From: an uncultured Chitinophagales bacterium
GTDB lineage: Bacteria; Bacteroidota; Bacteroidia; Chitinophagales; BACL12
Assembly (NCBI GenBank): GCA_964463165.1
Contig: CAYXBK010000019.1
Location: forward strand, 20,914-84,913
DNA: 64,000 nucleotides
Reading direction: 5' to 3'
The translations under genes and the position numbers were made by a program. The notes below the pieces were generated by a model. The model saw nothing but the letters and a program-made list of their open reading frames with translations. It did not search any database and was not told the DNA's origin. Below, in pieces: positions 26,202 to 54,581 of this stretch; the first letter of the stretch is position 1, and every line of letters begins with the position of its first letter.

Positions 26202-26256
26202 GCTGCTGGCTGCTGGCTGCTTGCTGCTAGCGGTCAGAGGCAAGCAGCCTGCTCAA
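26202..26256. repeat. Heptamer tandem array (GGCTGCT class) with embedded 10-bp inverted repeat
   Basis: GGCTGCT GGCTGCT GGCTGCT TGCTGCT AGCGGTC AGAGGCA AGCAGCC. GGCTGCTTGC pairs with GCAAGCAGCC. Lies between convergent genes. Confidence 0.8.
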
Positions 26257-26690
26257 TAAAAAATCATCTCCACAAACGAAGTTGTATTTGCCGGTGTGCT
26301 CACCGAGTCGATAATGTCTGCAAATGAAGGATGCTTTGCACGGATATAATAAAAATCTTTATCGAGTGCGTTGATTTCACAATGACCGGTTGAATCGGTA
26401 AGGCGGGATGCAGCGGGATAAGCTTCATTTAAAAAATCATAATAATCGTAATAAATATCCACCGTGGCTAACGCCACTACACTATCCATCTCCGGCGAAA
26501 CCGAATACACATGAATCACATCAAATTTAATTGTCCGGTTGAAATTTTCGGAACCATGTAGATCATCATCAACCGTTTCGTTTTTATCGCATGATGCGAA
26601 AATGAAAATTGTTGCGACAAAAAGAATAGATTTAGCCAAATAGGCTGCTCGTGATAAAAAGTAAAATTTCTGATTTAGATCAAAATTCAT
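26253..26690 (-). CDS. Hypothetical lipoprotein
   Basis: Start moved to MNFDLNQK...SILFVATIFIFASC (lipobox). The upstream part of the 190-aa track ORF reads through low-complexity intergenic sequence. Confidence 0.45.
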   Translation of the reverse strand: MNFDLNQKFYFLSRAAYLAKSILFVATIFIFASCDKNETVDDDLHGSENFNRTIKFDVIHVYSVSPEMDSVVALATVDIYYDYYDFLNEAYPAASRLTDSTGHCEINALDKDFYYIRAKHPSFADIIDSVSTPANTTSFVEMIFY

Positions 26691-26892
26691 TAGAAATCGC
26701 GGGTGGCATGAAAAAACGGCTGGCGGGGTGGTTTTGTGGCGTGGCAGCATCGTTTTTTCTTGATTTTTTGTTACTTTTTCATCAAGGAAAAAGTAAGATG
26801 AAAAATTAGCTTTGGTGTTTTGCAATTCCTTAAATTTCTTTCAATAAACATCAACTTGTTTAAAATTACGGTATACTAAATATTATGATTAT

Positions 26893-28437
26893 TTAAACTA
26901 AACTCTTCAGAATATTATTCATATCCACTTTCTCATTAACAACGGATAATACATTTTCAATTTTAATTCTTTCCTGCAACATGCTGTCACGCTCGCGAAT
27001 TGTTACCGTATTATCTTCCAGTGTCTGATGATCAATTGTAATACAATATGGTGTTCCGATCGCATCCATTCTTCTGTATCTTTTTCCGATTGAATCTTTT
27101 TCTTCATAATAACATTGATGATGAAATTTCAATTCGTTGAAAATATCCATTGCTTTTTCCGGTAATCCGTCTTTTTTTACCAGCGGCAATACGGCAACTT
27201 TAATTGGCGCAAGCACCACCGGTAAGCGCAATACTGTTCTTGTATCTTCATTTACCTGTTCTTCATCATACGCATTGCACAACATGGCAAGGAACATACG
27301 GTCGCAACCAATGGAAGTTTCCACTACGTAAGGTATATAGTTTTCATTTAATTCACTGTCGAAATATTGTAATTTTTTTCCGGAGAATTCGGTATGCCGT
27401 GATAAATCATAATTTGTGCGTGAATGAATTCCTTCCAGTTCTTTAAATCCGAACGGAAATTGAAATTCAATATCCACTGCTGCATTTGCATAATGCGCCA
27501 CTTTATCGTGATCATGAAATTTCAGCATAGCTTCATTCGTTCCTAAAGCAAGATGCCATTTCATGCGGGTGGCTTTCCAGTAATTATAATAATTTAATTC
27601 TTCACCCGGGCGGACGAAAAACTGCATTTCCATTTGCTCGAATTCACGCATGCGGAAAATAAACTGCCGTGCAACAATTTCATTCCGGAATGCTTTTCCG
27701 ATTTGTGCGATACCGAATGGAATTTTTTGACGGGATGTTTTCTGTACATTTAAAAAATTCACGAAAATACCCTGAGCTGTTTCCGGACGTAAATAAATTG
27801 TGTCGGCATCTTCTGCAACAGATCCCAATTTTGTGCTGAACATTAAATTAAATTGCCTTACATCCGTCCAGTTTCTGCTGCCGGTTTCAGGATCAGCAAT
27901 TTCACAATCAATAATGATCTGTTTTAATTCTTCTAGATTATTTTCATTTAATGCGGCTACATATCTTGCATGCACTTTATTTCTTTTCTCCGCAACTTCC
28001 ATAACCCTCGGATTTGTAGAAATAAACATTGCTTCATCGAAACTTTCACCGAATCGTTTCGCCGCTTTCTCAACTTCTTTTCTGATCTTATCATCTTGTT
28101 TTGCGAGATAATCTTCAATTAAATTATCTGCACGATATCTTTTTTTCGAATCTTTATTATCGATCAGCGGATCATTAAAAGCGTCCACATGTCCGCTTGC
28201 TTTCCAGGTAGTCGGGTGCATCAGAATTGCAGAATCGAGGCCGACAATGTTTTCATGCATCTGCACCATCGATTTCCACCAGTATTCCTTGATATTGTTT
28301 TTGAGCAATACGCCGTACTGGCCATAATCATATACGGCACTCAGGCCATCATAAATCTCGCTGCTCTGAAAAATAAAACCATACTCCTTCGCATGGCTGA
28401 TCACTTTCCTGAATTTCTCTGCATCATTTGGAATCAT
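26893..28437 (-). CDS. glyQS: Glycine--tRNA ligase (dimeric class II GlyRS)
   Basis: Conserved GlyRS N-terminus FRKVISHAKEYGFIFQSSEIYDGL..YDYG..G..LKNNIK..WW. Start set at ATG 28437; the track extension translates heptamer repeats. Confidence 0.9.
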   Translation of the reverse strand: MIPNDAEKFRKVISHAKEYGFIFQSSEIYDGLSAVYDYGQYGVLLKNNIKEYWWKSMVQMHENIVGLDSAILMHPTTWKASGHVDAFNDPLIDNKDSKKRYRADNLIEDYLAKQDDKIRKEVEKAAKRFGESFDEAMFISTNPRVMEVAEKRNKVHARYVAALNENNLEELKQIIIDCEIADPETGSRNWTDVRQFNLMFSTKLGSVAEDADTIYLRPETAQGIFVNFLNVQKTSRQKIPFGIAQIGKAFRNEIVARQFIFRMREFEQMEMQFFVRPGEELNYYNYWKATRMKWHLALGTNEAMLKFHDHDKVAHYANAAVDIEFQFPFGFKELEGIHSRTNYDLSRHTEFSGKKLQYFDSELNENYIPYVVETSIGCDRMFLAMLCNAYDEEQVNEDTRTVLRLPVVLAPIKVAVLPLVKKDGLPEKAMDIFNELKFHHQCYYEEKDSIGKRYRRMDAIGTPYCITIDHQTLEDNTVTIRERDSMLQERIKIENVLSVVNEKVDMNNILKSLV

Positions 28438-28441
28438 GTGG

Positions 28442-28449
28442 CAAAGATA
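28442..28449 (-). promoter_or_regulatory. Bacteroidota -7 box (TATCTTTG on minus strand) for glyQS
   Basis: TAnnTTTG match ending 4 nt before the glyQS ATG. Confidence 0.4.
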
Positions 28450-28450
28450 A

Positions 28451-28545
28451 GTGTGAGTGGTGAATGGTGAGTGGTGAGGGGGCAGTAGGCAGTCGCAGTT
28501 GGCAGTGTCTTGAATCCTGGTTCCTGAATCCTGACTCAATCCTGT
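28451..28545. repeat. Composite heptamer array with three word classes (GTGAGTG, GGCAGTC, CCTGAAT/CCTGACT)
   Basis: GTGAGTG GTGAATG GTGAGTG GTGAGGG | GGCAGTA GGCAGTC GCAGTT GGCAGTG | CTTGAAT CCTGGTT CCTGAAT CCTGACT. Sits in a divergent promoter region. Confidence 0.85.
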
Positions 28546-28591
28546 AACAAATCTTAACGCCCGATCGTCATACCCTGCAATTGATATCAAT

Positions 28592-28599
28592 TATATTTG
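28592..28599 (+). promoter_or_regulatory. Bacteroidota -7 box (TATATTTG) for the DUF2807 gene
   Basis: TAnnTTTG match 21 nt upstream of the ATG at 28621. Confidence 0.4.
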
Positions 28600-28620
28600 A
28601 ATAACATTAAAACCGGTTTT

Positions 28621-29331
28621 ATGAAAATCAGAAAAATTTATGCTCCGATGGCAATTGGCCTCATCGCAATTGCCATCATCTCCCTCTCATTCAAAAACTA
28701 CACAATTGCAACATCTCCGAACCAGGACCTTCCGGCATTTAAAAATATTTCAGTAGGCGGTTGCTGGGATGTATTTGTTTCAAATACCGGCAGTTCCGGC
28801 TTACGTATGGAAGGCGATCAGACCGAAATTGATAAAATAGTGACCGAGGTAAAGAACGGCACCTTGTATATCACCCTGAAAAAAAATAATATGAACTGCA
28901 ATGGAAAGGTTAACATTTATGTCACCACAAATGAATTGCACAGGGTGGATCTGGGCGGTTCAGGAAATATTAAACTCGAATCAAAATTTTCAAATTCCGA
29001 ATCTATGGATTTCAGCGTGGCGGGTTCGGGTAATATTGAAGGTGAGATCTCAACTCCCGATGTGGATGCTGAAATTGCAGGTTCCGGAACGATCAAATTG
29101 TGGGGTGACACCCAAAGCCTGGATATCGACATAGCAGGCAGCGGTAATTTCAACGGTGACGGACTGGCAAGTAATAATTCCGACATTGACATTTCGGGAA
29201 GTGGCGAAGCGCATGTGCGGGTTGCCTCAAAACTGGATGTTGAAATTGCAGGATCAGGCGATGTGTACTATTCAGGTGAACCGGTTGTTACCAAGAATAT
29301 TGCAGGCTCGGGCAATGTGCGCAAGAACTGA
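28621..29331 (+). CDS. DUF2807 / head GIN domain protein (beta-helical adhesin-head-like)
   Basis: Repeated (I/V)AGSGN(I/V/F) beta-helix rungs (GGSGNIKL, VAGSGNIEG, IAGSGTIKL, IAGSGNFNG, ISGSGEAHV, IAGSGDVYY, IAGSGNV). Confidence 0.75.
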   Translation: MKIRKIYAPMAIGLIAIAIISLSFKNYTIATSPNQDLPAFKNISVGGCWDVFVSNTGSSGLRMEGDQTEIDKIVTEVKNGTLYITLKKNNMNCNGKVNIYVTTNELHRVDLGGSGNIKLESKFSNSESMDFSVAGSGNIEGEISTPDVDAEIAGSGTIKLWGDTQSLDIDIAGSGNFNGDGLASNNSDIDISGSGEAHVRVASKLDVEIAGSGDVYYSGEPVVTKNIAGSGNVRKN

Positions 29332-29357
29332 TAAAATTATATGAAACGCATTTTTAC

Positions 29358-29384
29358 AGCGGACTTTTCAGTCCGCTTTTTTTA
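29358..29384 (+). terminator. Rho-independent terminator
   Basis: AGCGGACT-TTTC-AGTCCGCT hairpin followed by T7. Confidence 0.75.
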
Positions 29385-29486
29385 TGACTGTAGCGCACAG
29401 GCTATATACACAATTCCGAATGTGCATTGCAGCTTATATACTTTTTTGTAAACCACTACTTTCGCTTTACAATAAAACCATATTTT

Positions 29487-32096
29487 ATGAAGAAACCTGT
29501 CTACCTAAAAAAACAATCCCAATTTCTTTTCACTTTCATTTTTTCACTTTTCAGTTTTTATGCAACAGCGCAAACAACCGTCACGGGAAATGTTTCTGCC
29601 GAAACCGGCGGCGCATTGCCGGGTGCAACAATCGCGGAAAAAGGATCGACCAACGGAACAGTAGCCGATATGGATGGAAATTTTACAATTGTTGTGAGTA
29701 ATGTTCCGGCAACTTTGGTTTTTACCTATGTCGGATATTCACAAGTAGAGATCACTGTAAATAAACAGGAAAATTTACGTGTACTGCTTGTTGAAGAAAC
29801 GTATAATTTATCGGGTGTTGAAGTTGTGGGAACACGCAGCCTCAACCGTTCGGCAACAGAAAGTATGGTGCCGATTGATATTATTGACGTGGGGGCAGTT
29901 ACAAATACACAGGGCCAGCTCGATATCAATCAATTATTGCAATATGCTGCGCCTTCATTTAATTCGAACAGGCAATCGGGTTCGGATGGTGCCGATCATA
30001 TTGATCCAGCCACTTTGCGTGGATTAGGCCCCGATCAGACATTGGTTTTAATCAATGGAAAAAGATATCATCAATCTTCACTCATCAATATTTTCGGAAC
30101 ACGCGGCCGCGGAAATACCGGAACAGATTTAAATACAATTCCTGCCGCAGCAATTGATCATATCGAAATATTGCGTGATGGCGCATCTGCACAGTATGGT
30201 TCGGATGCAATTGCAGGTGTGATAAATATTGTTCTGAAAAATAATGTGAATGAATTTACAGGCAATGTAAATACAGGTGCTTATCAGGCGGAATATAATT
30301 TTGATCAAGAAGCATTGGACGGGAAAAATTTACAACTCAATGGAAATTACGGATTTCAATTAGGGGATAAAGGATTTTTTAATGTGACTTCCGATTATCA
30401 TTACCGCGGTCACACAAACCGTGCGGAATTCACAGGTGATTTTCCGGACAATACCGATGTGCGGAATCAATACGGCGATGCGGAAGTAACGGATTTTTCC
30501 GGTTGGTTCAATATGCAATATCCGTTGAATGATAAAGCGCATATTTATGCATTCGGCGGATATAATACACGTGATGTGGAAGCTTATGCATATACACGTG
30601 CCGCAGATGAAGAAAGAAATGTTACGTCTATTTATGCAAATGGTTTTGATCCGATCATCGCATCTTTTGTAACAGATAAATCAATTTCAACAGGTGTTCG
30701 CGGTGAATTAAACGGATGGGATGTTGATTTTAATAATACATTCGGTTCTAATAAAATGCATTATTACGGAAGGCATACATTAAATGCGTCTTTATTAAAT
30801 GCATCTCCAACCGAATTTGACGACGGTGGATTTTCTCTCGCACAAAATACAACCAGTCTGGATTTTACAAGATATTATGCAGAGCCTTTAAGCGGAATCA
30901 ATTTCGCTTTCGGAACAGAATATCGTGTAGATAATTATCAAATCTTTGCAGGTGAAGAAGGATCGTATTTTAATTACGGCGGATTATTTATCGACGGAGA
31001 AGATACAATTATCCGTCCGGGTGGTTCACAGGGATTCCCCGGATTTCAACCCGGTGATGTAACCGATGAATTCAGAACAAATATCGGTGTATATGGAGAT
31101 GTGGAATTAAATTTAACGGAAGATTTTTCCATAGATGGTGCGTTGCGGTATGAAGATTATTCTGATTTCGGAAATACATTAACAGGAAAATTAGCAGCAC
31201 GTTATGCGATCAGCGATAAATTCGCTTTGCGTGGATCTTACAGCACGGGTTTCCGTGCACCATCACTTGCGCAGATTTATTTCTCTTCTACTTACACAAA
31301 TGTTGAAGTAGGTCAAATCATCGATGAAGTAATTGCAGATAATAAAAGTGTAATTGCACGCGAGCTCGGTATTCCTGCATTAAAAGAAGAAGAAAGTACG
31401 AATGCAAGTTTTGGATTTACAACAAAACCGATCACAGGTTTATCCTTAACGGTGGATGGTTATATGGTGACAATTAAAGACCGTATCGTGCTCACAGATG
31501 GTTTCGGTACCGATGATGATGTGATCGGCGAAACACTCGATGAATTAAATGTGGGTTATGCAAGATTTTTCACGAATGCGGTGGATACAAAAACAATGGG
31601 ATTGGATGTGATCTTATCTTATAAAATGTATATGGATGATAATACACTCACATTCACGTATGCCGGCAATTTTAACAAAATGGAAATTGATGCGATTCAC
31701 ACAAATGAAAAATTAGCGGGTAAAGAAGATAATTATTTCAGTTTGCGTGAACAGTATTTTTTACTTGCCTCTGCTCCGCCATCAAAAATGAATATTTCGG
31801 TTGAATATGCCACACCGAAATTCAATGCAAACCTCCGTGCAAATTATTTCGGAGAAATTAATCTGATCAATTACAGCGGCAATGAATATACCTATTCCGC
31901 AAAAGCATCAATCGATGCAAGTGTGGGATATGATGTATTTAAAAACATGCATGCAACTGTTGGTGTTGTAAATATTCTCGACACTTATCCCGACCCGACC
32001 GACCCATACGAAACTGAAACCGGCGGCGCATGGGATGCAGTGCAAATGGGATTTGGGGGAAGGTTTATGTTTGCTAAGCTCGGCTTTACATTTTGA
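29487..32096 (+). CDS. TonB-dependent receptor with N-terminal carboxypeptidase-regulatory-like domain
   Basis: Signal peptide; VTGNV...PGATI..KGS..GT..D.DG.F CarbopepD_reg domain; plug motifs (IEILRDGASAQYGSDAIAGVINIV); terminal aromatic residue ...LGFTF. Confidence 0.9.
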   Translation: MKKPVYLKKQSQFLFTFIFSLFSFYATAQTTVTGNVSAETGGALPGATIAEKGSTNGTVADMDGNFTIVVSNVPATLVFTYVGYSQVEITVNKQENLRVLLVEETYNLSGVEVVGTRSLNRSATESMVPIDIIDVGAVTNTQGQLDINQLLQYAAPSFNSNRQSGSDGADHIDPATLRGLGPDQTLVLINGKRYHQSSLINIFGTRGRGNTGTDLNTIPAAAIDHIEILRDGASAQYGSDAIAGVINIVLKNNVNEFTGNVNTGAYQAEYNFDQEALDGKNLQLNGNYGFQLGDKGFFNVTSDYHYRGHTNRAEFTGDFPDNTDVRNQYGDAEVTDFSGWFNMQYPLNDKAHIYAFGGYNTRDVEAYAYTRAADEERNVTSIYANGFDPIIASFVTDKSISTGVRGELNGWDVDFNNTFGSNKMHYYGRHTLNASLLNASPTEFDDGGFSLAQNTTSLDFTRYYAEPLSGINFAFGTEYRVDNYQIFAGEEGSYFNYGGLFIDGEDTIIRPGGSQGFPGFQPGDVTDEFRTNIGVYGDVELNLTEDFSIDGALRYEDYSDFGNTLTGKLAARYAISDKFALRGSYSTGFRAPSLAQIYFSSTYTNVEVGQIIDEVIADNKSVIARELGIPALKEEESTNASFGFTTKPITGLSLTVDGYMVTIKDRIVLTDGFGTDDDVIGETLDELNVGYARFFTNAVDTKTMGLDVILSYKMYMDDNTLTFTYAGNFNKMEIDAIHTNEKLAGKEDNYFSLREQYFLLASAPPSKMNISVEYATPKFNANLRANYFGEINLINYSGNEYTYSAKASIDASVGYDVFKNMHATVGVVNILDTYPDPTDPYETETGGAWDAVQMGFGGRFMFAKLGFTF

Positions 32097-32118
32097 TAAT
32101 AAATTGATTTGAAAAAAA

Positions 32119-32148
32119 ACGCTGCCTGGGAGGGCGGCGTTTTTTTTT
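32119..32148 (+). terminator. Rho-independent terminator after the TonB-dependent receptor
   Basis: ACGCTGCC-TGGGAG-GGCGGCGT hairpin (one G-T pair) followed by T8. Confidence 0.65.
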
Positions 32149-32285
32149 GCCCATAACCTAACAGGTTGTCCCCACAGTCAAACTCAAACCCAGAACCTGC
32201 CACTCAACGCATAATTCCCGCACGCCGGCAGGCAGGCTCAAAACCCTCAACTTTTTCCAAACTATTTCCTTCCCTCCGCAGTTTA

Positions 32286-32293
32286 TACCTTTG
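32286..32293 (+). promoter_or_regulatory. Bacteroidota -7 box (TACCTTTG) for the NifU-family gene
   Basis: TAnnTTTG match 15 nt upstream of the ATG at 32309. Confidence 0.4.
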
Positions 32294-32308
32294 CACAAAA
32301 GAAAAGTC

Positions 32309-33845: not shown

Positions 33846-33860
33846 GGAGAAGGAAATAAA

Positions 33861-39879: not shown

Positions 39880-39924
39880 ATGATTGTTTTGTATGATTAA
39901 AATTTATTCGACAGTTCCCTCATC

Positions 39925-39987
39925 TCAATACTCAATACTCAATACTTGATACTTGATACTTGATACTTGATACTTGATACTTGATAC
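39925..39987. repeat. Heptamer tandem array: (TCAATAC)x3 followed by (TTGATAC)x6
   Basis: Nine perfect in-phase heptamers in the divergent intergenic region between 39879 and 40121. Confidence 0.9.
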
Positions 39988-40073
39988 TGGCTCCTATTTC
40001 CAAACGAATCTAATTCTTTTTTCAAACTGTTTCAAATTGTTGTCACCTGCAGAACTGCGATGTGCAGAATATA

Positions 40074-43744: not shown

Positions 43745-43749
43745 GAAAA

Positions 43750-43792
43750 AATTCCGGTGACAACGGTTGGTTGTTGCCGGAATTTTAATTTA
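43750..43792 (+). terminator. 15-bp hairpin immediately after atpE (intra-operon attenuator/terminator)
   Basis: AATTCCGGTGACAAC-GGTTG-GTTGTTGCCGGAATT (two G-T pairs) followed by TTTAATTT. Confidence 0.5.
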
Positions 43793-43825: not shown

Positions 43826-44338
43826 ATGATCCTGCTTGGCTCATTTGATATCATCACACCGGATCCGGGTTTATTTATCTGGACCGTATTTGTTTTTCTG
43901 ATCGTATTATGGGTGCTGAATAAATATGCTTTCGGCCCCATTAAAAATGCATTGGCAAAACGGGAAGAAGGAATTTCTGATGCTTTAAACCAGGCACAGA
44001 AAGCACGTGAAGAAATGGCGAATATGAAATCGGATAATGAGAAAATTCTGAATGAGGCCCGTGAAGAAAGAAGCCGTATGTTGCGTGAAGCGAAAGAGGC
44101 AAAAGAACAATTAATTGCGGAAGCAAGAGAAAAAGCAAATACCGAATATAACAGGATCGTGGATGAAGCGAAAAATGCCATCAATAATCAGAAAATGGCA
44201 GCCTTGATCGAAATTAAAAATCAGGTCGGAACAATGGTGCTGGATGTGAGTGAAAAAGTATTGCGCCGCGAACTCGATAATAAATCCGATCAGGAAAATT
44301 ATATTAAAAAATTAGTGGACGAAATTAAAGTGAATTAA
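43826..44338 (+). CDS. atpF: F0F1 ATP synthase subunit b
   Basis: Single N-terminal TM helix plus a long charged helix. Position between atpE and atpH. Confidence 0.85.
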   Translation: MILLGSFDIITPDPGLFIWTVFVFLIVLWVLNKYAFGPIKNALAKREEGISDALNQAQKAREEMANMKSDNEKILNEAREERSRMLREAKEAKEQLIAEAREKANTEYNRIVDEAKNAINNQKMAALIEIKNQVGTMVLDVSEKVLRRELDNKSDQENYIKKLVDEIKVN

Positions 44339-44420
44339 TCAGAGTCAAGAATCAAGAATCAGGAGCCAAGACTAAATCATAGTTTCCAATCCTGACTCTT
44401 GAGTCCTGACTCCTGACTCT
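44339..44420. repeat. Inverted pair of heptamer arrays (GTCAAGA/ATCAGGA arm and TCCTGAC/TCTTGAG arm)
   Basis: AGAGTCAAGAATCAAGAATCAGGAGCCAAGA ... ATCCTGACTCTTGAGTCCTGACTCCTGACTCT. The arms are imperfectly complementary and fill the atpF-atpH spacer. Confidence 0.85.
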
Positions 44421-44426
44421 AAAAAT

Positions 44427-44987
44427 ATGTCAGCAACAAAATTAGCATCGCGATACGCAAAATCAATTCTTGATTTAGCCATTGAGCAAAACAAGGTTGA
44501 TCAGGTATTAAATGATATGCGCTTACTCAACAATGCAGTTGATTCGAACCGCGATTTTTATTTAATGCTGAAAAGCCCGATTGTAAATGGGGATAAAAAA
44601 ATGGAAGTGGTGCTGAAAGCTTTTCACACAAGCATTTCTGAAATGACTGAGAATTTTATCGGCATCCTGATGCGCAAAAACCGCGAATCCTATCTCCCTG
44701 AAATTATTGATGAATTTATCAATCAATATAATTTATACAAGCATATCACACCGGTGAAAATTACAACTGCTCAGCAAATCTCACCGGAAATGCAAAATAC
44801 ATTAATTGATAAATTAAAATCAACTGCGGGTTTGCAATTCATTGAATTAACAACCGCAATTGATGAATCACTTATCGGCGGGTATGTTTTACAATGGGAA
44901 GATAAGTTAATTGACAACAGTATTTCGAGAGGATTGGCAATGATGAAAGATGAATTCGATAACAATGATTATGTGAGGAAGTTTTAA
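44427..44987 (+). CDS. atpH: F0F1 ATP synthase subunit delta
   Basis: OSCP-like N-terminus ASRYAKSILDLA, size, and operon position. Confidence 0.85.
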   Translation: MSATKLASRYAKSILDLAIEQNKVDQVLNDMRLLNNAVDSNRDFYLMLKSPIVNGDKKMEVVLKAFHTSISEMTENFIGILMRKNRESYLPEIIDEFINQYNLYKHITPVKITTAQQISPEMQNTLIDKLKSTAGLQFIELTTAIDESLIGGYVLQWEDKLIDNSISRGLAMMKDEFDNNDYVRKF

Positions 44988-45000
44988 GCTGGAAGCATGA

Positions 45001-45021
45001 GCCAAGAATCAGGAGTCAGGA
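45001..45021. repeat. Short heptamer array (GCCAAGA ATCAGGA GTCAGGA)
   Basis: Same word class as 44339-44372. Begins 13 nt after the atpH stop. Confidence 0.7.
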
Positions 45022-45081: not shown

Positions 45082-45144
45082 ATACTAGATACTAGATACT
45101 AGATACTAGATACCAGATACTTGTTACTAAATACCCGATACTAA
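45082..45144. repeat. Heptamer tandem array, ATACTAG class, nine units
   Basis: ATACTAG x4, then ATACCAG, ATACTTG, TTACTAA, ATACCCG, ATACTAA. Ends 10 nt before the atpA ATG. Confidence 0.9.
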
Positions 45145-46739: not shown

Positions 46740-46767
46740 TTGCTAGCTACTAGATACTAGATATCGG
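46740..46767. repeat. Heptamer array, ATACTAG class (TTGCTAG CTACTAG ATACTAG ATATCGG)
   Basis: Begins 4 nt after the atpA stop, in the atpA-atpG spacer. Confidence 0.75.
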
Positions 46768-48765: not shown

Positions 48766-48927
48766 GCATAGATGCACTCATTCGCTACCGAAATAAGAAA
48801 TATAGTACGAAATTCAATCTTGACATTGGCTCAGGATAATATTGGCTTCTGATAAATAGGTTTATCGATTGGTGTCTTCACCAACCAAAGCTAAAAGTAG
48901 AAGTGGGATATCTACTACGAGGGATAT

Positions 48928-50103
48928 CTACTCCCCACACTGGCTCAATACCAAATTCGCTTCACTCACATTTATATTATTTTTTGAACCGAGATCAATT
49001 GCTGTATTCGCATATTTTTTTGCGAAATCTTTATATCCGATTTTCAGGTAGATTTTAGCAGCGGATAAATTGCTGAAATAATCGGGTTTTAATTCTGCGG
49101 AGCGCACTGCGAAATTCGCTGCTTTTTGTAATTGCGGTTTATCATTAGTGTTTTGATAAATTGTTTCACTCATTCTGCGCAATAATGTTGCATCTCCCCA
49201 AACATATTTTTCTCCACCGCTTACTGCAATTGAAATATATTGCGGCCATTGTTTATTTTTTTCTGCGAGATTCAAACCTGAAATAAATACCATTGAATCC
49301 ACCTGTGTCAATCCAAGATCAAGAGACAATTTTTTTATCTTGTTGAATGCAATCGTATCGTTTGCACTTGCCGTGATTTGTAAATTATATGCTGCCGTGA
49401 GAAATAATTTCCTCTCCACTTTTTTCTGAGTTGCGATTTCAGCGAATTCTTTTCGGTGCATACTCATAAATTGAAACGCCTCAGATTCCATATCACTCAC
49501 AGCCATGCTCAGTATTTTCCAGTTATATGCCGAATATTCGAAATGTTCTTTAATTGCGCTGAAATACATATTTACAACAGGTTGTGTTGCCAATCGCCCG
49601 CGGCTTAACCCGACCAGATAATTATAACATGCAACCGAATCGGATGTGTTTGAAAGAAATTTTGATTTCAAATTCGGCAGTTGCTGTTCGGGCTGTAATG
49701 CAAGTTCACCCATATGCACAAAATCAGCAGCTTTAAATTCACCCACATATTGAAAAATTGTCTCCGCATTTTTATCGATGATCGCATAGGTCGGGAATGA
49801 CTGAACATAAAAATGCTTTACTAATTTTTGTGCATCGGGATCGGTGAGCATTTCTGCTTTTATACAAATAAAATGGGCATTGTAAAAATTTGTAATTGCC
49901 GAATCTGGCATTACCTCTTTCAGCATTTTTTCGCAATGTCCGCAGGTGGACTGATACATCATTAAAAAAACCGGTTTGTTTTCTGCTGCAGATTTATTTA
50001 CTGCTTCCTGTAAATTCAGATCCTGAAATTGAAATTGTGCGAGGAGGGAAAATTGGAATCCTGCCAAAAAAATAAGAAGGAAAAAAAGCTGTATTCTTTT
50101 CAT
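48928..50103 (-). CDS. Secreted thioredoxin-fold protein with helical-repeat C-terminal region
   Basis: Signal peptide; CGHC (CxxC) in a thioredoxin-like N-domain (KPVFLMMYQSTCGHCEKM). Confidence 0.6.
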   Translation of the reverse strand: MKRIQLFFLLIFLAGFQFSLLAQFQFQDLNLQEAVNKSAAENKPVFLMMYQSTCGHCEKMLKEVMPDSAITNFYNAHFICIKAEMLTDPDAQKLVKHFYVQSFPTYAIIDKNAETIFQYVGEFKAADFVHMGELALQPEQQLPNLKSKFLSNTSDSVACYNYLVGLSRGRLATQPVVNMYFSAIKEHFEYSAYNWKILSMAVSDMESEAFQFMSMHRKEFAEIATQKKVERKLFLTAAYNLQITASANDTIAFNKIKKLSLDLGLTQVDSMVFISGLNLAEKNKQWPQYISIAVSGGEKYVWGDATLLRRMSETIYQNTNDKPQLQKAANFAVRSAELKPDYFSNLSAAKIYLKIGYKDFAKKYANTAIDLGSKNNINVSEANLVLSQCGE

Positions 50104-50187
50104 AAATCCGGATGCTAAATTACGATGGATGGTGGATTTCGTGTAAACAAAATTCCTGCCCCGATCATTTAAAAGCCTTTATTTTCT

Positions 50188-50195
50188 TACTTTTG
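50188..50195 (+). promoter_or_regulatory. Bacteroidota -7 box (TACTTTTG) for scpB
   Basis: TAnnTTTG match ending 7 nt before the ATG at 50203. Confidence 0.4.
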
Positions 50196-50202
50196 TGCTG
50201 TG

Positions 50203-50919
50203 ATGAACAACCTTCAGAAATTAATCGAAGCCCTCATTTTCAGCTCGGAACAACCGATCACGATCGCTGAATTGCAAACTGTTCTCTTTACTTATTCGGG
50301 TGAGGAGGTGAGCCTTGAAGCCATCCAGGAACATGTGGATGCTTTGCTTCTAAAATATGAAAGTGATGATTTTGTTTTCGAGATCGTAAAAACGGGAGGC
50401 GGTTATCAGTTTCTGAGCAAACCCTATTACCACAAACCCATTTCAACCTTATTGCAACACCGGGCAAAGCGCAAACTAAGCATTGCAGCACTCGAATGTC
50501 TTTCAATAATTGCCTATTCACAACCGGTCACGAAGGTGGAAATCGAACAGATCCGCGGCGTAAACTGTGATCATACCATTCAGAAACTGATGGAGCGTGA
50601 CCTGATACGGATCAACGGGAGAAGTGATACAGCCGGACGCCCGCTATTATACGGCACAACACAATACTTTATGGACTATTTCGGGATCAATAACCTCGAA
50701 GAGTTGCCAAAACTGAAAGAGTTCGAACAAAAAGATATTTCGATAGGAGCACCTTCCGATATCATGGAATCCGTTTCGGAGGAAGAAGCCTATGCACAGG
50801 TGCGATTTGACAACGAGCGTCGTGAAGATGCCCAAACAGATAATTATGAAAAAAACGAACAACAGCTTTCAGAAGAAAACCCACCAACCGAAGAAGACGG
50901 GGAAGATATCCAGGAGTGA
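50203..50919 (+). CDS. scpB: SMC-Scp complex subunit ScpB
   Basis: LIEALIFSSEQPITIAEL N-terminus and a second wHTH (LECLSIIAYSQPVTKVEIEQIRGV); acidic tail. Confidence 0.85.
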   Translation: MNNLQKLIEALIFSSEQPITIAELQTVLFTYSGEEVSLEAIQEHVDALLLKYESDDFVFEIVKTGGGYQFLSKPYYHKPISTLLQHRAKRKLSIAALECLSIIAYSQPVTKVEIEQIRGVNCDHTIQKLMERDLIRINGRSDTAGRPLLYGTTQYFMDYFGINNLEELPKLKEFEQKDISIGAPSDIMESVSEEEAYAQVRFDNERREDAQTDNYEKNEQQLSEENPPTEEDGEDIQE

Positions 50920-52054
50920 AAAGCCGGAAGATGGCAGTCGGCAGTCCACTGCCAACAGTCGGAAATCTGATAGGAACGACATAAGAAATTTCGGAGAAAG
51001 TAAATTCAGAAAACGTTCTGAAGAAGAATTCTTTAAAAAGAAATCACAGGAGTGGGATGAAAAAAAATCAGGCCGCAAAAAAGAATTCGATCCTGAAAAA
51101 AAACGCAGCAATTTTTCACGCAATACATCCGATAAATCAAATTCCCGCGATAACAGAATTCATCGGCCGGAAAATAAGCGCATTAGTTTTAAGGATGATA
51201 ATCATAATGAAGCAAAGCCCTTCAGCAAAAAAAGATTTCAAAGCAATACCGAAATAAAAATTGAACGCAAGAAATTTGAAAAATCTGTTCCGCAGCGTGA
51301 GCCTTTAAAAAAAGCTGCACATTCTCCCGTACCGAAAGGAGAAAAAACAATGCGCCTGAATAAATATCTCGCCAATTCAGGAGTTGCCGCAAGAAGAAAA
51401 TGCGATGATTATATCGCACAGGGCCATGTAAAAGTGAATAATGATGTAGTAACGGAAATGGGTTACCGTGTGAAAGAAGGTGATAAAGTATATTTCAAGA
51501 ATAAATTAGTACAACCGGTTAATTACGTTTATATATTATTGAATAAACCGAAAGATTATATCACAACCGCCGATGATGAACGCGGGAGAAGTACCGTACT
51601 TGAACTTGTGCAGCACGCAACCGAGGAACGTGTTTATCCGGTTGGCCGCTTAGACAGAAATACGACGGGATTATTATTATTAACCAATGACGGTGATCTC
51701 GCACAAAAATTATCTCATCCGAGTTATGGTGCACAAAAATTATATGAAGTGGAACTCGATAAAGCATTAACACCTCATGACCTGCAATTAATTGAAAACG
51801 GAATTGAACTGGAAGACGGTTTGGCGGTAGTTGACGGAATTGATTATGCGCATCGCACAAATAAAGCAATTATGGGTATATCCATTCATATCGGGAAAAA
51901 CAGAATTGTAAGAAGAATATTCGAACATCTCGGTTATAAAGTCATGCGGTTGGACCGCACATTATATGCGGGGCTTACCAAAAAAGATCTGCCACGTGGT
52001 AAATGGAGATTGCTTACGGAGAAAGAAATAATAAAATTGAAGTATTTGAAATGA
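50846..52054 (+). CDS. rluB: rRNA pseudouridine synthase (RluB/RsuA family) with long Lys/Arg/Ser-rich N-terminal extension
   Basis: S4 domain MRLNKYLANSGVAARRKCD from 51350; catalytic VGRLDRNTTGLLLLTNDG. The upstream 186 codons are open and strongly basic. The start is uncertain (50828, 50846, or as late as 51350). Confidence 0.75.
   Translation: MKKTNNSFQKKTHQPKKTGKISRSEKPEDGSRQSTANSRKSDRNDIRNFGESKFRKRSEEEFFKKKSQEWDEKKSGRKKEFDPEKKRSNFSRNTSDKSNSRDNRIHRPENKRISFKDDNHNEAKPFSKKRFQSNTEIKIERKKFEKSVPQREPLKKAAHSPVPKGEKTMRLNKYLANSGVAARRKCDDYIAQGHVKVNNDVVTEMGYRVKEGDKVYFKNKLVQPVNYVYILLNKPKDYITTADDERGRSTVLELVQHATEERVYPVGRLDRNTTGLLLLTNDGDLAQKLSHPSYGAQKLYEVELDKALTPHDLQLIENGIELEDGLAVVDGIDYAHRTNKAIMGISIHIGKNRIVRRIFEHLGYKVMRLDRTLYAGLTKKDLPRGKWRLLTEKEIIKLKYLK
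50933..50960. repeat. Heptamer words GGCAGTC GGCAGTC CACTGCC AACAGTC
   Basis: Same word as in 28481-28508. Begins 13 nt after the scpB stop and lies inside the putative rluB N-terminal extension. GGCAGT/ACTGCC form a palindrome. Confidence 0.7.
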
Positions 52055-52158
52055 AGTAAATGCAAAATGCAATTTCACACCAAGGCGCCAAGCCGCAAAG
52101 TGAAAATAGTTATATATTGTAATATTACACGGTCGACTTTAAACCTGCAAATATTTTT

Positions 52159-54450
52159 TTAGTCTTCAATAATAATTTCCTTTGTGAAAAATTTACCATT
52201 TAAATTCAATGAAATTAAATAAATGCCCGGTGGGATTGTTTTACTCAATTGAATTGAGGTATTTAATTCCGGTGTTGATGAAAATTCCGTTGAATAAATA
52301 ATCTCACCTAAAATATTTCTGATTTGTATCTCACAAACACCATGATCCTGATTTGAGAAAGAAGCGCTTATTTCGAAATTCCCGTTATTCGGATTTGGAT
52401 TCACTTCAAAATTATTCACTTCATATTCAAATCCTTCTTTGCATGCATTTATAATTGAAAGTGCGGGCGACATTTTTGAACAGCCTGCAGCTGTTGTTAC
52501 CATTACTTTGTAATTTCCTGTTGTAGTTGCAAAATAAATTTGATTGGTGGCTCCGGCCAAAGGTGTTGCACCTTTATACCATTGATAAGAATAACCGGCA
52601 CCCGCATTTGCTTTTAATTTAATACTAGCATCCACACATAAATTATTTGTTCCGTCGAGGTTATTTATCGATGCAGTTGGTGTTGCATTTACAACCACAT
52701 TTGTGATTTCAGATAAATCATTGCAACCACCGGGGATCGTGATGAATACAGTATAATCTCCTGCTTTAGTTGCAGTATAATTATTTCCTGCTGCACCGGC
52801 GATATTAATACCGTTCTTTTTCCATTGATAAGAAAAACCTGCTCCGGTATTTGCATTTAAAATTACATTGCTTCCTTTGCAAAATGTTGTAGGTCCGGAA
52901 GGTGATATCATGGCAATGATTATTTCTTCATCAATCATTGCATCACAATCATCGTCTATTGTATTACAAATTTCCGGTGCACCCGGATAAATTAAATTAT
53001 TTGCATCATTGCAATCGGTTGAATTTAAAACATAACCCAAAGGCATGCTGCAGGATGTGGATGTAATTGCTGCATTTCCGAATCCATCGCCATCACTGTC
53101 TGCAAAAGAAATCAACGGGTCATCACAATAGTTAATCTTGCTTAGAAATCCATCTGTAGCCCCGCCTGAAACAAATGTTTCATCACCGAAGGATACAGTA
53201 CCAGTGAATGAACCGCATAATGTCAAAATGCCGGGAGAGAGTATTTTATAAGAATAAATTATTGGTGCGTTAGGAAAAGTAATTGCCGTACCTCCCAAAA
53301 CATTTCCATCAAAATCAATTTTTGCAATAAATATATCTTTATCGGGTGTAAGTATTAATTCATCGGGTCCTAAAGAGAGATCTTCTGTAAAATAACCGGT
53401 AATTAATAAACTATTGGAAATTGAGTCAACAAATAAATGCATTGGAAAATGATATGCATTTTGATCAAGATTGATGACCCAGACGTAATTACCGTCTGAA
53501 TTGATTTTAGCTACAAATGTATTGTATTCGCCAACTTCACCGTATAATTTTATTCCATCGAAATCCAGCGAATCTGAATTAAAACCTCCGGTTATATAAA
53601 CGTTACCGGAATTATCCGATTTCATGGATTTTATCCAATCTGTTTGATTCCCGCCGATTTTTTTTATCCATTGATAGGTACCGCTACCATTTAATTTACA
53701 TAGATAAGAATCAGTGCCGCCTGAATTTGTTAATGTTGTCCCGTTTATTGTTATTGCACTGGTATATTTTCCATCGATATACAAATTATTATTTTGATCA
53801 ATTTCTTCAGTATTGACTTCGATTGTATTAAATGCTTTTGTCCAAGTTGTTCCGCCTGCATTTTTTTTTGTAAGTGTATGGTTTTGAACAAAAGAAAATC
53901 CAATGAGTTGTTCACGGTTATCAATATATGCAACATTACCTGCCTGATTGCAGACTACAGGTCCGATTGAATTAACAAAGGAATTGCCGCTGAAAATATT
54001 TGCTGCTGATGTATAAGTGCCATTTGAATCAAGTGTGACGTAATATGATGAATTACCTGATCCAGCCAAACCCCTGAATATTGTAAAGGGTGGAAATGAT
54101 GCTGATGTATTTGCATACCATCCTCCATTATAACATTTTTTATTCCCATCCACGGCTATGCTGCCACTCTCTGCCCAATCGGTTGCATGTAACCAGATGA
54201 GTCCACCAGAAGGATCAAGTTTAAAAGTAGAGGCGTTATAGGATGAAGTTGTATAAGTTGTGTCGGCAAATGTATTTGTTCCTGATCCATCACCCATACC
54301 ATATATATTGCCGTCATGATCAGAAACTACAGACCAGATTATATCTTCTGAAGAACCGCTTAATTGTTTTGTCCACTCAATTGAAAAACTCTGGGCGGAA
54401 CAAATGACAGATTGAATAGTAATAATTGTAAAGAGGAGAATATTTTTCAT
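52159..54450 (-). CDS. Large secreted beta-propeller-repeat protein with Cys-rich metal-binding-like motif, Ig-like domains and T9SS type A sorting domain
   Basis: Signal peptide; SBBP-like repeats (D..GN.Y..G); DSDGDGFG...CNDANNLIYPGAPEICNTIDDDCD; C-terminal NPNPNNGNF...GIYLISL. Confidence 0.75.
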   Translation of the reverse strand: MKNILLFTIITIQSVICSAQSFSIEWTKQLSGSSEDIIWSVVSDHDGNIYGMGDGSGTNTFADTTYTTSSYNASTFKLDPSGGLIWLHATDWAESGSIAVDGNKKCYNGGWYANTSASFPPFTIFRGLAGSGNSSYYVTLDSNGTYTSAANIFSGNSFVNSIGPVVCNQAGNVAYIDNREQLIGFSFVQNHTLTKKNAGGTTWTKAFNTIEVNTEEIDQNNNLYIDGKYTSAITINGTTLTNSGGTDSYLCKLNGSGTYQWIKKIGGNQTDWIKSMKSDNSGNVYITGGFNSDSLDFDGIKLYGEVGEYNTFVAKINSDGNYVWVINLDQNAYHFPMHLFVDSISNSLLITGYFTEDLSLGPDELILTPDKDIFIAKIDFDGNVLGGTAITFPNAPIIYSYKILSPGILTLCGSFTGTVSFGDETFVSGGATDGFLSKINYCDDPLISFADSDGDGFGNAAITSTSCSMPLGYVLNSTDCNDANNLIYPGAPEICNTIDDDCDAMIDEEIIIAMISPSGPTTFCKGSNVILNANTGAGFSYQWKKNGINIAGAAGNNYTATKAGDYTVFITIPGGCNDLSEITNVVVNATPTASINNLDGTNNLCVDASIKLKANAGAGYSYQWYKGATPLAGATNQIYFATTTGNYKVMVTTAAGCSKMSPALSIINACKEGFEYEVNNFEVNPNPNNGNFEISASFSNQDHGVCEIQIRNILGEIIYSTEFSSTPELNTSIQLSKTIPPGIYLISLNLNGKFFTKEIIIED

Positions 54451-54518
54451 AGAGTTGATTTGATGAATGAATACGGAATTTTTATTTGAAGATAATAATA
54501 AATATGTTCAGATTCAAT

Positions 54519-54581
54519 TCCTGACTCTTGACTCCTGACTCTTGACTCCTGACTCCTGACTCCTGATTCCTGACTCCTGAC
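54519..54581. repeat. Heptamer tandem array, TCCTGAC class, nine units
   Basis: TCCTGAC TCTTGAC TCCTGAC TCTTGAC TCCTGAC TCCTGAC TCCTGAT TCCTGAC TCCTGAC. Ends 5 nt from the CDF transporter stop codon. Confidence 0.9.

Follow-up and report, generated by a model that had tools for sequence, protein, structure and literature searches.

The cyanobacterial STRR sequences, whose canonical words CCCCAGT, TTGGTCA and CAACAGT (STRR1-3) reportedly go back to Mazel et al. 1990, are tandem 7-nt units that lie in intergenic regions, often inside operons, and one genome may have several word classes. Two cistrons can be separated by a hairpin made of them, as between hupS and hupL, where a role in transcript stability or translational coupling was suggested (PMC2670836). 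Long prokaryotic SSRs with units of 5-11 nt likewise show a mostly intergenic heptamer excess, as in the survey of Mrazek 2007, the GGGAATC repeats of Xanthomonas and the TAACTGA repeats of Beggiatoaceae, Cyanobacteria and Bacteroidetes; their length and sequence vary in close relatives, inverted pairs occur occasionally, and the same word can be found in distant phyla (PMC4692102; PMC4679880). An excess of heptamer SSRs among bacteria was previously known (PMC4692102), and for five Bacteroidetes MacGregor 2015 reported intergenic copies of TAACTGA as well as "other heptamer direct repeats" (PMC4679880). In H. influenzae hmw, a long hairpin in the 5'-UTR has an (ATCTTTC)n array as one of its arms and is cut by RNase III; expression falls in inverse proportion to the number of repeats, and changes in that number are likewise affected by RNase III (PMC12721329).

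We analysed a stretch of 64,000 nucleotides (the window) from an uncultured Chitinophagales bacterium, in which arrays were detected with TRF and with our own period scan. Period-7 runs numbered nine in the window, every other period from 4 to 12 gave at most six, and shuffles gave about 0.4. The runs lie at 26200-26228, 28453-28478, 28511-28534, 39924-39988 (100% matches), 44337-44361, 44390-44419, 45082-45143, 46743-46763 and 54519-54584. An earlier note on this DNA had listed nine sites as a dispersed family of intergenic arrays that share words. The scan of the window upheld this family, and eight of the nine sites are genuine period-7 arrays far above chance, all of them intergenic, with the words GTCAGGA, ATACTWG, GGCTGCT, GGCAGTC, GTGAGTG and TCAATAC. 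The accepted features are as follows.

26200-26249, plus strand: hairpin of a (GGCTGCT)x4 array (26200-26228; TRF 4.1 copies, 95% matches) pairing with GCAAGCAGCC (26240-26249)
28453-28540, minus strand: abutting blocks of GTGAGTG x4, GGCAGTN x4 (one unit of 6 nt) and TCCTGAN x4
39925-39987, no strand assigned: TCAATAC x3, then in-phase TTGATAC x6, perfect (TRF 100% matches)
44339-44372, plus strand: 5' arm of the atpF-atpH hairpin, (RTCARGA)n, directly after the atpF stop (TAA, 44336-44338)
44390-44420, plus strand: 3' arm of the atpF-atpH hairpin, (TCYTGAC)n, ending 6 nt before the atpH ATG at 44427
45001-45021, plus strand: post-stop array GCCAAGA ATCAGGA GTCAGGA, 13 nt past the atpH stop
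45082-45144, plus strand: (ATACTAG)x9 single array, first four units perfect (TRF 8.9 copies)
46740-46767, plus strand: short array of the GCTAG/ATACTAG class, 4-7 nt past the atpA stop (TRF 3.0 copies)
54519-54584, minus strand: single array, (GTCAGGA)x9 in the sense direction (TRF 9.4 copies, score 111)

These arrays are heptanucleotide SSRs of the already known STRR and long-SSR kind. Since the unit length of 7 is not a multiple of 3, such SSRs are strongly restricted to non-coding DNA. The units directly abut without spacers, whereas in a CRISPR array unique spacers alternate with repeats of comparable size, about 24-48 nt, so the arrays were rightly judged not to be CRISPR. The comparison with cyanobacterial STRRs drawn in the earlier note was apt, but its remark that Bacteroidota had no equivalent description was wrong in part, given MacGregor 2015 (PMC4679880). 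The host belongs to another phylum and is not a (heterocystous) cyanobacterium, as ruled out by its best AtpA relatives (Chitinophagales, 85%; Sphingobacteriaceae, about 81%), a Por_Secre_tail T9SS sorting domain, DUF5723 and the gene order atpBEFHAG. The three canonical STRR words are all absent from the window; STRR words were seen only in some metagenome contigs that have (GTCAGGA)n as well (L097, L160). In contrast to STRRs, the arrays at ATP-synthase junctions described below show a systematic stop-to-start layout, arm polarity and a period-8 minority. The long-SSR surveys describe single-word families that form G-quadruplexes or lie close to start codons, and report no conserved two-armed hairpins, atp junction specificity or arm polarity.

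Several sites needed revision. The site at 50933-50960 was rejected: it has only two copies, TRF is silent, and it falls in an N-terminal extension, rich in K, R and E, that belongs to a pseudouridine-synthase ORF and is therefore no intergenic array. The three imperfect units at 45001-45021 are below the TRF threshold, although they are of the same GTCAGGA word class. Strict periodicity did not hold at 28451-28545, where the GGCAGT block has one 6-nt unit and TRF calls period 13, nor throughout 26202-26256, whose 3' part is the non-periodic complementary hairpin arm. The statement that most arrays begin 4-13 nt after a stop codon was roughly right: of the eight accepted sites, five start within 0-13 nt of a real stop, downstream of it; counting the rejected site at 50933 would bring the number to six, and the "stop" preceding the 28451 array is part of a spurious antisense ORF. 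Words do recur across sites: the TCCTGAC/GTCAGGA class occurs at five, 28511-28534 among them, and the ATACTAG/ATACTTG class at three, because TTGATAC is a rotation of ATACTTG.

Within the atp operon of the window, the two facing arrays between atpF and atpH are predicted to fold in the sense RNA into a hairpin of -33.1 kcal/mol (z -6.35), compared with -49.3 kcal/mol for the antisense strand. The loop (44373-44389) is conserved in relatives, the hairpin is followed by CTCTAAAAAT, and its 3' arm has two extra units in L084 and L090 relative to L081. The atpE-atpF hairpin (43748-43786) is built of non-repeat sequence and has a T run. The array at 45001-45021 has no complementary partner within its gap; its counterparts in L081, L084 and L086 are TATAAGG-class units that differ by one unit between L084 and L086. 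The 45082-45144 array ends 10 nt ahead of the atpA ATG (45155) in an unstructured region (z -0.04), and relatives carry CATGATA/CTTGATA units at this position. At 46740-46767 there is no 3' partner arm in this organism, and L081 has 28 nt more of (GCTGCTA)n at the site. In Sphingobacteriaceae, the same atpA-atpG junction holds a GTATCAA/TTGATAC hairpin, which is kept across Pedobacter, Pelobium and Mucilaginibacter.

In a phase-variable contingency locus, a gene for a surface or virulence factor has an SSR in its promoter, 5' region or ORF and is switched reversibly, on/off or in grades, within a population; most of the arrays sit in a housekeeping operon. Outside this operon, the 26200-26249 hairpin (plus strand, -33.0 kcal/mol, z -3.15) lies between two convergent genes, a DUF2911 gene (plus, stop 26195) and an ORF of 165-190 aa (minus, stop 26253) (Pfam), and is unchanged in the independent assembly L092. 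Two sites lie in divergent promoter regions, as had been noted. At 28453-28540, between a class II aaRS gene (minus, ATG 28437) and a DUF2807, adhesin-head-like gene (plus, 28621), the aaRS-sense reading places the G-free CACTCAC block closest to the start, 15 nt off, and the minus-strand RNA folds more poorly than 197 of 200 shuffles (z +1.92). The 39925-39987 array, between a 228-aa gene (minus, ATG 39879) and a DUF5723 gene (plus, ATG 40121), has weak self-structure; the sister species L081 has a degenerate array at this locus and L082 none. The 54519-54584 array begins 2 nt past the stop of a cation-efflux gene (54587-55543, minus; Pfam) and lies 68 nt upstream of the gene for a T9SS-secreted protein (52159-54450, minus); no inverted partner was found for it, and its centroid structure is unpaired. 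A palindromic element of the REP or MITE kind, which would recur whole (arms plus loop, or terminal repeats) in many copies at unrelated sites, was rejected, as only the words recur, the loops are site-specific and the 54519 array has no partner arm. Rfam gave no match.

We surveyed 1.6 Mb of Bacteroidota atp loci and found 99 arrays of period 7, 26 of period 8 and 17 of period 6; no period other than 7 exceeded 26. Intergenic DNA makes up 12.9% of the surveyed sequence and holds 96 of the 99 period-7 arrays. Among codirectional arrays, 53 of 60 abut a stop (within 10 nt) or a start (within 13 nt), where at most 22 were expected. When we defined the atp genes by homology in 80 Bacteroidota species, period-7 and, less often, period-8 arrays concentrated at atpF-atpH and atpA-atpG, where they form complementary hairpin arms. 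The earlier note had seen one facing arm pair, but missed the conserved stop-to-start hairpins, their phylum-wide concentration at atp junctions and period 8. The junctions compare as follows.

B-E: strong hairpins 4%, period-7 arrays 1
E-F: strong hairpins 77%, period-7 arrays 2
F-H: strong hairpins 21%, period-7 arrays 13
H-A: strong hairpins 8%, period-7 arrays 2
A-G: strong hairpins 53%, period-7 arrays 14

The sampled species are phylogenetically related, and these counts therefore overstate independence. Considering the subunit stoichiometries of ATP synthase (c10, b2, delta1, alpha3, gamma1), the frequencies place hairpins at the steps from c10 to b2, b2 to delta1 and alpha3 to gamma1, and rarely from a to c or delta to alpha. 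Strong hairpins are thus located where subunit stoichiometry steps down and are rare at step-up junctions. The element is optional. The F-H gap is shorter than 40 nt in most species, and in L001, the closest genome, the gaps measure just 2 and 9 nt.

The hairpins at F-H and A-G have a median of 26 bp and 35% GC, begin 2-4 nt past the stop and end 11-13 nt ahead of the ATG. Intrinsic terminators consist of a GC-rich stem with a T run directly after it; a T tail (five or more T among the 8 nt that follow the stem) is absent from all 53 hairpins examined at F-H and A-G, and their GC is 0.35. Terminators, which had been suggested, are therefore rejected for the operon-internal arrays. The arm words are reverse complements within one mismatch at 15 of 24 junctions, compared with 10% for cross-species arm pairs. 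Twenty distinct words occur at the two junctions, and the arms are complementary though the words differ between genera; RNAalifold shows compensatory changes in 13 of 20 pairs. The G-rich arm is the 5' arm in 50 of 52 of these hairpins, whereas E-F hairpins divide 27:25. Pre-start arrays contain 6% G and post-stop arrays 6% C.

Considering position and geometry, we infer that a subset of these heptamer SSRs has been recruited, in this Bacteroidota lineage and many others, as intercistronic RNA hairpins that damp the downstream cistron and are tuned by slippage; we give this reading a probability of about one half. Replication slippage in 7-nt steps makes and resizes the arrays, which survive almost only in non-coding DNA. 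A C-poor array immediately after a stop would pair with an inverted-complement, G-poor array immediately before the next start, and the long, AU-rich hairpin so formed would occupy the whole gap; within the window, the atpF-atpH gap (44339-44420) would be such a case, with a similar hairpin at the convergent 3' ends at 26200-26249. The stem would keep in duplex the stretch that lies some 11-45 nt ahead of the downstream start, and initiation on the downstream cistron would be lowered. A ribosome terminating 2-4 nt before the stem base may briefly open the stem, so that downstream translation would be a damped fraction of upstream translation. Gain or loss of a 7-nt unit would change stem length and could retune the ratio. 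Five of the eight accepted sites, being single arrays or word blocks without a partner, fall outside the hairpin model; the partnerless arrays (45082-45144, 54519-54584, 39925-39987 and 28453-28540) represent this mutational product as well, but unpaired.

This proposal resembles the translational coupling of atpH and atpA by mRNA secondary structure in E. coli, reportedly described by McCarthy and co-workers in the 1990s. There, too, an atp intercistronic structure is said to limit downstream initiation, upstream translation relieves it, and subunit ratios are set. However, the E. coli structure lies at the H-A junction, raises alpha when atpH is translated, is not built of tandem repeats and acts alongside Shine-Dalgarno sites. 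Such sites are unused in Bacteroidota, and structure near the start codon tunes initiation in Bacteroidetes (PMC6847099). As at hmw1A/hmw2A, where a transcribed heptamer SSR sets expression by its repeat number (PMC12721329), the SSR here is a predicted long RNA hairpin arm whose repeat number changes by slippage. At hmw, a single array arm pairs with a G-rich non-repeat partner in the 5'-UTR of an adhesin gene in pathogen phase variation, whereas in the atp hairpins both arms are arrays, between cistrons of a housekeeping operon.

On the other hand, the arrays may be a neutral by-product of slippage that accumulates in tolerant non-coding DNA, perhaps favouring pre-existing hairpins, as secondary structure promotes polymerase slippage; any functional hairpin would then not need repeats. 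Slippage itself, which the earlier note had suggested in speaking of hypervariable sites, is directly visible when array lengths are compared between close strains. Between L084 and L081, with 99.0% identity over 4.9 kb, the difference inside an array is 14 nt (2 units), and between L086 and L084, with 98.7% identity, it is 21 nt (3 units); these exact 7-nt steps between 99%-identical strains indicate slippage-prone simple-sequence repeats. The 3' arm is frequently longer than the 5' arm (e.g. L084), so that some units next to the start codon are unpaired. Words are swapped between sister species at the same site, arrays are missing from some relatives (L082, L001), and the occurrence of both periods 7 and 8 makes it less plausible that a reader tied to a 7-nt register is at work. 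The words chosen show no bias towards structure-free repeats, and in metagenomes (GTCAGGA)n is not preferentially oriented with respect to the genes beside it (15 vs 10). Also, antisense folds better at 18 junctions with repeat-armed hairpins and sense at 7 (p = 0.016), whereas ordinary codirectional hairpins favour the sense strand (46 vs 15); an mRNA hairpin that had simply been optimised would not be expected to behave in this way. Polymerase-related slippage has indeed been proposed as the cause of the heptamer excess (PMC4692102, PMC4679880). However, among gaps of 40-200 nt, period-7 runs occur in 20% of 153 in atp operons but in none of the 223 codirectional ones elsewhere (convergent 1/62, divergent 0/80). 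The GTATCAA/TTGATAC hairpin persists across three genera, complementarity is held through 20 words, and the 50/52 polarity is not predicted by simple hairpin-induced slippage. We consider a purely neutral origin possible but rather unlikely.

We also considered that RNase III processing or segmental mRNA stability is the function: the duplexes would cut the atp polycistron into segments, of which the upstream one retains a protective 3' stem and the downstream one decays or is translated differently. RNase III substrates have a size range that includes stems of about 26 bp, and the F-H and A-G stems, AU-rich and without T tails, match this; they also stand at step-down junctions, and the heptamer-arm hairpin of hmw provides an experimental precedent (PMC12721329). 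Yet periodic A.C mismatches weaken the sense duplex, and cleavage alone explains neither the stem span from 2-4 nt past the stop to 11-13 nt before the start nor the G-poor 3' arm. We regard this as unlikely; it is compatible with, rather than exclusive of, hairpins that damp translation.

Periodic binding, in which single-stranded arrays act as multivalent sites for an RNA-binding (S1, cold-shock-domain, RRM) or DNA-binding protein that regulates translation or transcription of the adjacent gene, appears improbable to us. Single arrays do end 10-15 nt before a start (45082-45144; the CACTCAC block of 28453-28540) or begin 2 nt past a stop (54519-54584), the single-array segments are unstructured, and one AG/CT dinucleotide is retained per heptamer in Sphingobacteriaceae; for TAACTGA repeats, S1, Csp or CsrA-like proteins were put forward by MacGregor as possible binders (PMC4679880). 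Dozens of unrelated words (63 in the 1.6 Mb, 20 at two junctions), their replacement at the same site between sister species and the occurrence of period 8 fit such a reader poorly. Although short-read contigs break within arrays (L091, which ends in the 54519 array, and L083), an assembly or sequencing artefact is refuted by arrays identical to the window in the independent assemblies L083 and L092 and by homologous arrays in genomes of isolates and in complete genomes, among them those of Pedobacter, Mucilaginibacter and Sphingobacterium.

In summary, heptamer SSRs as a kind are known, and what sets some of the present arrays apart is their complementary, two-armed layout at atp junctions. 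Such hairpins may form in the mRNA of these Bacteroidota and reduce expression of the downstream gene, and slippage would then tune this expression.

The window contains nine runs of period 7 in a match/mismatch scan, against at most six for each of the other periods between 4 and 12 and about 0.4 in block shuffles. An earlier note on this DNA had listed nine sites of period-7 arrays, and eight of them were accepted, as follows.

Period-7 arrays accepted in the window and their gene context
26200-26228: TRF array; between convergent genes (26200)
28453-28478 and 28511-28534: TRF arrays; divergent region (28453-28540)
39924-39988: TRF array; divergent region (39925-39987)
44337-44361 and 44390-44419: TRF arrays; atpF-atpH gap (44339-44420)
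45001-45021: three imperfect units, accepted but below the TRF threshold; atp operon
45082-45143: TRF array; atp operon
46743-46763: TRF array; atp operon
54519-54584: TRF array; gap between two codirectional minus-strand genes

In the atp operon the arrays occupy three successive gaps, F-H (atpF-atpH), H-A (atpH-atpA) and A-G (atpA-atpG). The words named for the arrays agree with our unit-by-unit reading, and words are shared more widely than had been stated, with five window sites for the TCCTGAC/GTCAGGA class and three for the ATACTAG class, since TTGATAC is a rotation of ATACTTG and was grouped with it. On the other hand, only the left half of 26202-26256 is periodic, the right half being an aperiodic, complementary hairpin arm, and the strict phase proposed for 28451-28545 did not hold because the middle block has one 6-nt unit. 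The ninth site, 50933-50960, was dropped, because it has only two copies and lies in a stop-free coding extension, and is thus neither an array nor intergenic. The surrounding RluB-like pseudouridine-synthase ORF (50792-52054; domains S4 and PseudoU_synth_2) has a K/R/E/S-rich N-terminal extension of about 170-185 codons, and the only ATGs that precede the S4 domain lie within the 3' end of scpB (50200-50919), giving an overlap of 70-128 nt. The arrays are not assembly artefacts, because independent Logan assemblies of the same strain (L083 and L092) are identical to the window; a third contig of the strain, L091, ends inside the 54519 array. Short-read assemblies of this one strain break within arrays, with L091 ending at (GTCAGGA)n and L083 starting at (CTTGATA)n, so that arrays are probably under-represented in short-read metagenome-assembled genomes.

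We surveyed the atp loci of 80 Bacteroidota species (1.6 Mb), together with the window and its relatives, counting arrays of at least three copies that were not of low complexity. Period 7 accounted for 99 arrays, period 8 for 26, period 6 for 17 and each other period for at most 8. Although intergenic DNA makes up 12.9% of the survey, 96 of the 99 period-7 arrays are intergenic. Codirectional arrays lie at gap edges in 53 of 60 cases (expected, at most 22), that is, they begin at most 10 nt past the upstream stop or finish at most 13 nt ahead of the downstream start. In the typical gap, the post-stop and pre-start arrays are reverse-complementary and give a long stem on folding. When the commonest word of each arm is compared, the two are complementary with at most one mismatch in 15 of 24 junctions, a share that is 10% for arms taken from different species; the two-arm junctions use 20 different 5' words. 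RNAalifold gave 20 pairs for ten A-G gaps, with compensatory changes in 13. The F-H gap of the window itself is a predicted hairpin of -33.1 kcal/mol (z -6.35).

An alignment of atpA-atpG gaps (A1; Bacteroidota atp loci L017, L020, L022, L026, L029, L030, L034, L038, L041 and L042) retains across genera, once per heptamer, a 5'-arm AG and the pairing 3'-arm CT, while the other five positions covary. Shared ancestry or a constraint tied to the register may account for this retention. Stop-to-start hairpins with 8-nt units were found in the F-H and A-G gaps of L014, L025, L044, L057, L060-L062, L067 and L075, with the arms GGATTCGA/AATCCTCA in L057 and GATGTGCA/TGCACATC in L060-L062. Eight was the only hairpin unit period seen other than 7, and periods 6 and 9 were essentially absent. 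Single-linkage clustering of words at one mismatch chained nearly everything into one cluster and was abandoned.

These hairpins are not spread evenly over the operon, as seen when the atp genes were assigned by homology and strong hairpins were defined by E <= -15 and z < -3.

Strong hairpins and repeat arrays at the junctions of atpB-E-F-H-A-G
B-E: strong hairpins 3/72; period-7 arrays 1; period-8 arrays 0
E-F: strong hairpins 56/73; period-7 arrays 2; period-8 arrays 1
F-H: strong hairpins 16/76; period-7 arrays 13; period-8 arrays 4
H-A: strong hairpins 6/75; period-7 arrays 2; period-8 arrays 2
A-G: strong hairpins 37/70; period-7 arrays 14; period-8 arrays 5

Among gaps of 40-200 nt, a period-7 run is present in 20% of those in the atp operon (n=153), in 0/223 other codirectional gaps, in 1/62 convergent gaps and in 0/80 divergent gaps. 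The stoichiometry of ATP synthase is a1 c8-15 b2 delta1 alpha3 gamma1, and the hairpins lie at the three junctions where it steps down and are rare at the two where it steps up. The E-F hairpin is of another kind, shorter and seldom built from repeats. In the window, the gap between atpE (c) and atpF (b) holds a perfect, GC-rich 17-bp hairpin at 43748-43786 (-24.2 kcal/mol, z -6.67), preceded by an A run, followed by a T run and kept in the sister species (L081); its appearance is that of a partial intrinsic terminator, and it follows the gene of the most abundant subunit. At F-H and A-G the median stem is 26 bp with 35% GC, and these hairpins begin 2-4 nt past the stop and finish 11-13 nt ahead of the ATG. 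A T-rich tail is present in 0/53 of them, which rules out intrinsic terminators. They also have a polarity, the G-rich arm being on the 5' side in 50 of 52, against 27:25 in E-F hairpins, with a C content of 6% in post-stop arrays and a G content of 6% in pre-start arrays (p = 8e-9). The element is optional, as the F-H genes nearly abut in most species, and in the genome closest to the window organism (L001) the gaps are 2 and 9 nt.

The assignment of the host to Bacteroidota is correct, as judged from its AtpA relatives, of which the nearest is a Chitinophagales metagenome-assembled genome (85%) followed by many Sphingobacteriaceae (~81%), and from its gene content, which includes a T9SS (type IX secretion) sorting-domain protein, a DUF5723 protein and the order atpB-E-F-H-A-G. 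In this organism, 4 of 33 non-atp gaps between genes (40-300 nt) contain period-7 arrays, compared with 1 of 365 in 80 other Bacteroidota species (Fisher p = 2e-4), which points to a lineage-specific expansion past the atp operon. In the divergent regions, sigma-70 promoter matches equalled the shuffle expectation, and the Bacteroidota promoter consensus differs from this type, so that the matches carry no information. On the minus strand at 28448-28548, the leader of a class II aminoacyl-tRNA synthetase consists of three abutting word blocks and is less stable on folding than 197 of 200 dinucleotide shuffles (z +1.92), that is, it is unusually unstructured. The idea that words are chosen as a non-folding spacer was unsupported (mean percentile 0.53 among equal-GC words, p = 0.47). 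Rfam gave no match at gathering thresholds in the window and six related loci, the F-H hairpin included, and a permissive scan of the atp region gave only chance miRNA and snoRNA matches.

Ten metagenome contigs of the same gene order were collected as relatives by exact match to the c-subunit protein, and their atpF-atpH gap is 88, 92, 97 or 111 nt, depending on the contig. Over 4.9 kb, L084 and L081 share 99.0% identity, with a difference of 14 nt that amounts to two units and is confined to the 3' arm; for L086 and L084 the identity is 98.7% and the difference 21 nt, three units across two arrays. The slippage that the earlier note had supposed is thus seen directly, as whole-unit changes between near-identical contigs. 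In the sister species, at ~88% identity, the F-H words are kept and those of the H-A and A-G gaps are changed; the 39925 site is a degenerate array there and has none in a more distant relative. Accordingly, copy number varies within species and words are replaced between species. Exact-protein look-ups in the flanks of the non-atp arrays returned same-strain contigs only and are thus uninformative on polymorphism there. Pairing over a longer range, between the spare TCCTGAC units in the 3' arm at F-H and the GTCAGGA units after atpH, was rejected because L081 has TATAAGG as its post-atpH word, with the F-H words unchanged.

Bacteroidota ribosomes work without Shine-Dalgarno pairing, and structure at the start codon and upstream adenines tune initiation (PMC6847099). 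The stem would place nucleotides from about -11 to -45 in duplex and may thereby depress initiation on the downstream cistron, and its base, 2-4 nt past the upstream stop, could be opened transiently by the terminating ribosome. The net effect would be a damped translational coupling where less of the next subunit is required, and slippage would retune the stem in 7-nt quanta. Taken together, we consider that hairpins with 7-nt, sometimes 8-nt, repeat arms may be a distinct, widespread and evolvable class of intercistronic RNA element, in which the inverted stop-to-start arrays would act as ribosome-gated dampers reset by slippage. Bacteroidota would set ATP-synthase subunit ratios in this way (b to delta, alpha to gamma), and the design would recur in other phyla and operons. 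This joint reading is tentative, and we would give it about three chances in ten.

The closest experimentally characterised analogue of the repeat-armed atp hairpins is the hmw 5'-UTR of H. influenzae, where (ATCTTTC)n forms one arm of a long hairpin, more repeats give less expression and RNase III cleaves the stem (PMC12721329). Because that repeat-armed stem is cleaved, RNase III processing has to be taken seriously as an alternative or additional mechanism, and by analogy it may act on the atp hairpins. For the STRR hairpins between hupS and hupL of cyanobacteria, a role in transcript stability or translational coupling has been suggested (PMC2670836). On the other hand, some observations do not fit the hairpin model. 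At 44336-44429 of the window, the antisense strand folds better (-49.3 vs -33.1 kcal/mol), because an A.C mismatch recurs once per heptamer in the sense RNA, and the antisense strand is also the better-folding one in 18 of 25 repeat-armed atp junctions of the 80 species (sense 7, p = 0.016), whereas ordinary codirectional hairpins show the opposite bias (sense 46, antisense 15). The 3' arms often exceed the 5' arms in length. Moreover, five of the eight accepted window sites (28453-28540, 39925-39987, 45001-45021, 45082-45144 and 54519-54584) have no partner arm and are predicted to be unstructured. A purely mutational origin free of function is a live rival for such single arrays and a less probable one for paired arrays.

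A scan of metagenomes with (GTCAGGA)3 returned at least 120 stretches, and the 80 contigs read among them (L093-L172) have a GC content of 35-68% and carry 181 period-7 arrays, with at most 16 of each other period. Among the matches listed, TAACTGA-class arrays are also present in L120, L128, L129, L141, L144, L158 and L159, and canonical cyanobacterial STRR words in L097 and L160. From the GC range and these shared words, the heptamer vocabulary is common to several phyla, as MacGregor had already remarked for TAACTGA (PMC4679880). At 5714-5886 of L096, a contig of a 54%-GC organism, inverted arrays of GTCAGGA/TCCTGAC occupy the whole gap that separates ABC-transporter permease and ATPase genes, from 3 nt past the stop to 4 nt ahead of the start, and some listed contigs show the same in other operons. 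The stop-to-start architecture thus exists outside atp operons and probably outside Bacteroidota, and this gap is an example of the recurrence that the damper reading proposes. Among the matches listed, (GTCAGGA)n had no orientation bias relative to genes (15 vs 10) and none of the contigs carried atp genes. A core 'ACT'/'CTGA' common to the words across phyla was noticed post hoc and is insufficiently significant to claim.

The STRR heptamer repeats of cyanobacteria have been known since 1990. To our knowledge, no long simple-sequence repeats are commoner in bacteria than heptanucleotide ones, and we know of no accepted function for them since the STRRs were described. It is documented that they are in excess, lie between genes, vary in length among relatives and occasionally form inverted pairs (PMC4692102), and heptamer repeats had already been reported in five Bacteroidetes (PMC4679880), contrary to the earlier note, which was aware of no description for this phylum. 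We found no description in the searchable literature of the conserved stop-to-start architecture with two arms, of its concentration in the ATP-synthase operon at the junctions b-to-delta and alpha-to-gamma across at least three orders, of the arm polarity or of the period-8 minority.

In summary, the paired arrays hold defined junctions of a universally conserved operon with known product ratios, which makes the question of function testable. The carriers include cultured, genetically tractable Pedobacter, Mucilaginibacter and Sphingobacterium, and the rules of geometry and polarity yield quantitative predictions. If the damper model is false, the arrays would exemplify, with unusual clarity, the neutral growth of microsatellites in association with structure. 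If it is true, the long-unexplained heptamer repeats (STRR) would gain a concrete function, and the model would show how operon stoichiometry is set in bacteria without Shine-Dalgarno-based tuning, with mutation-prone repeats serving to adjust the regulation of housekeeping genes.
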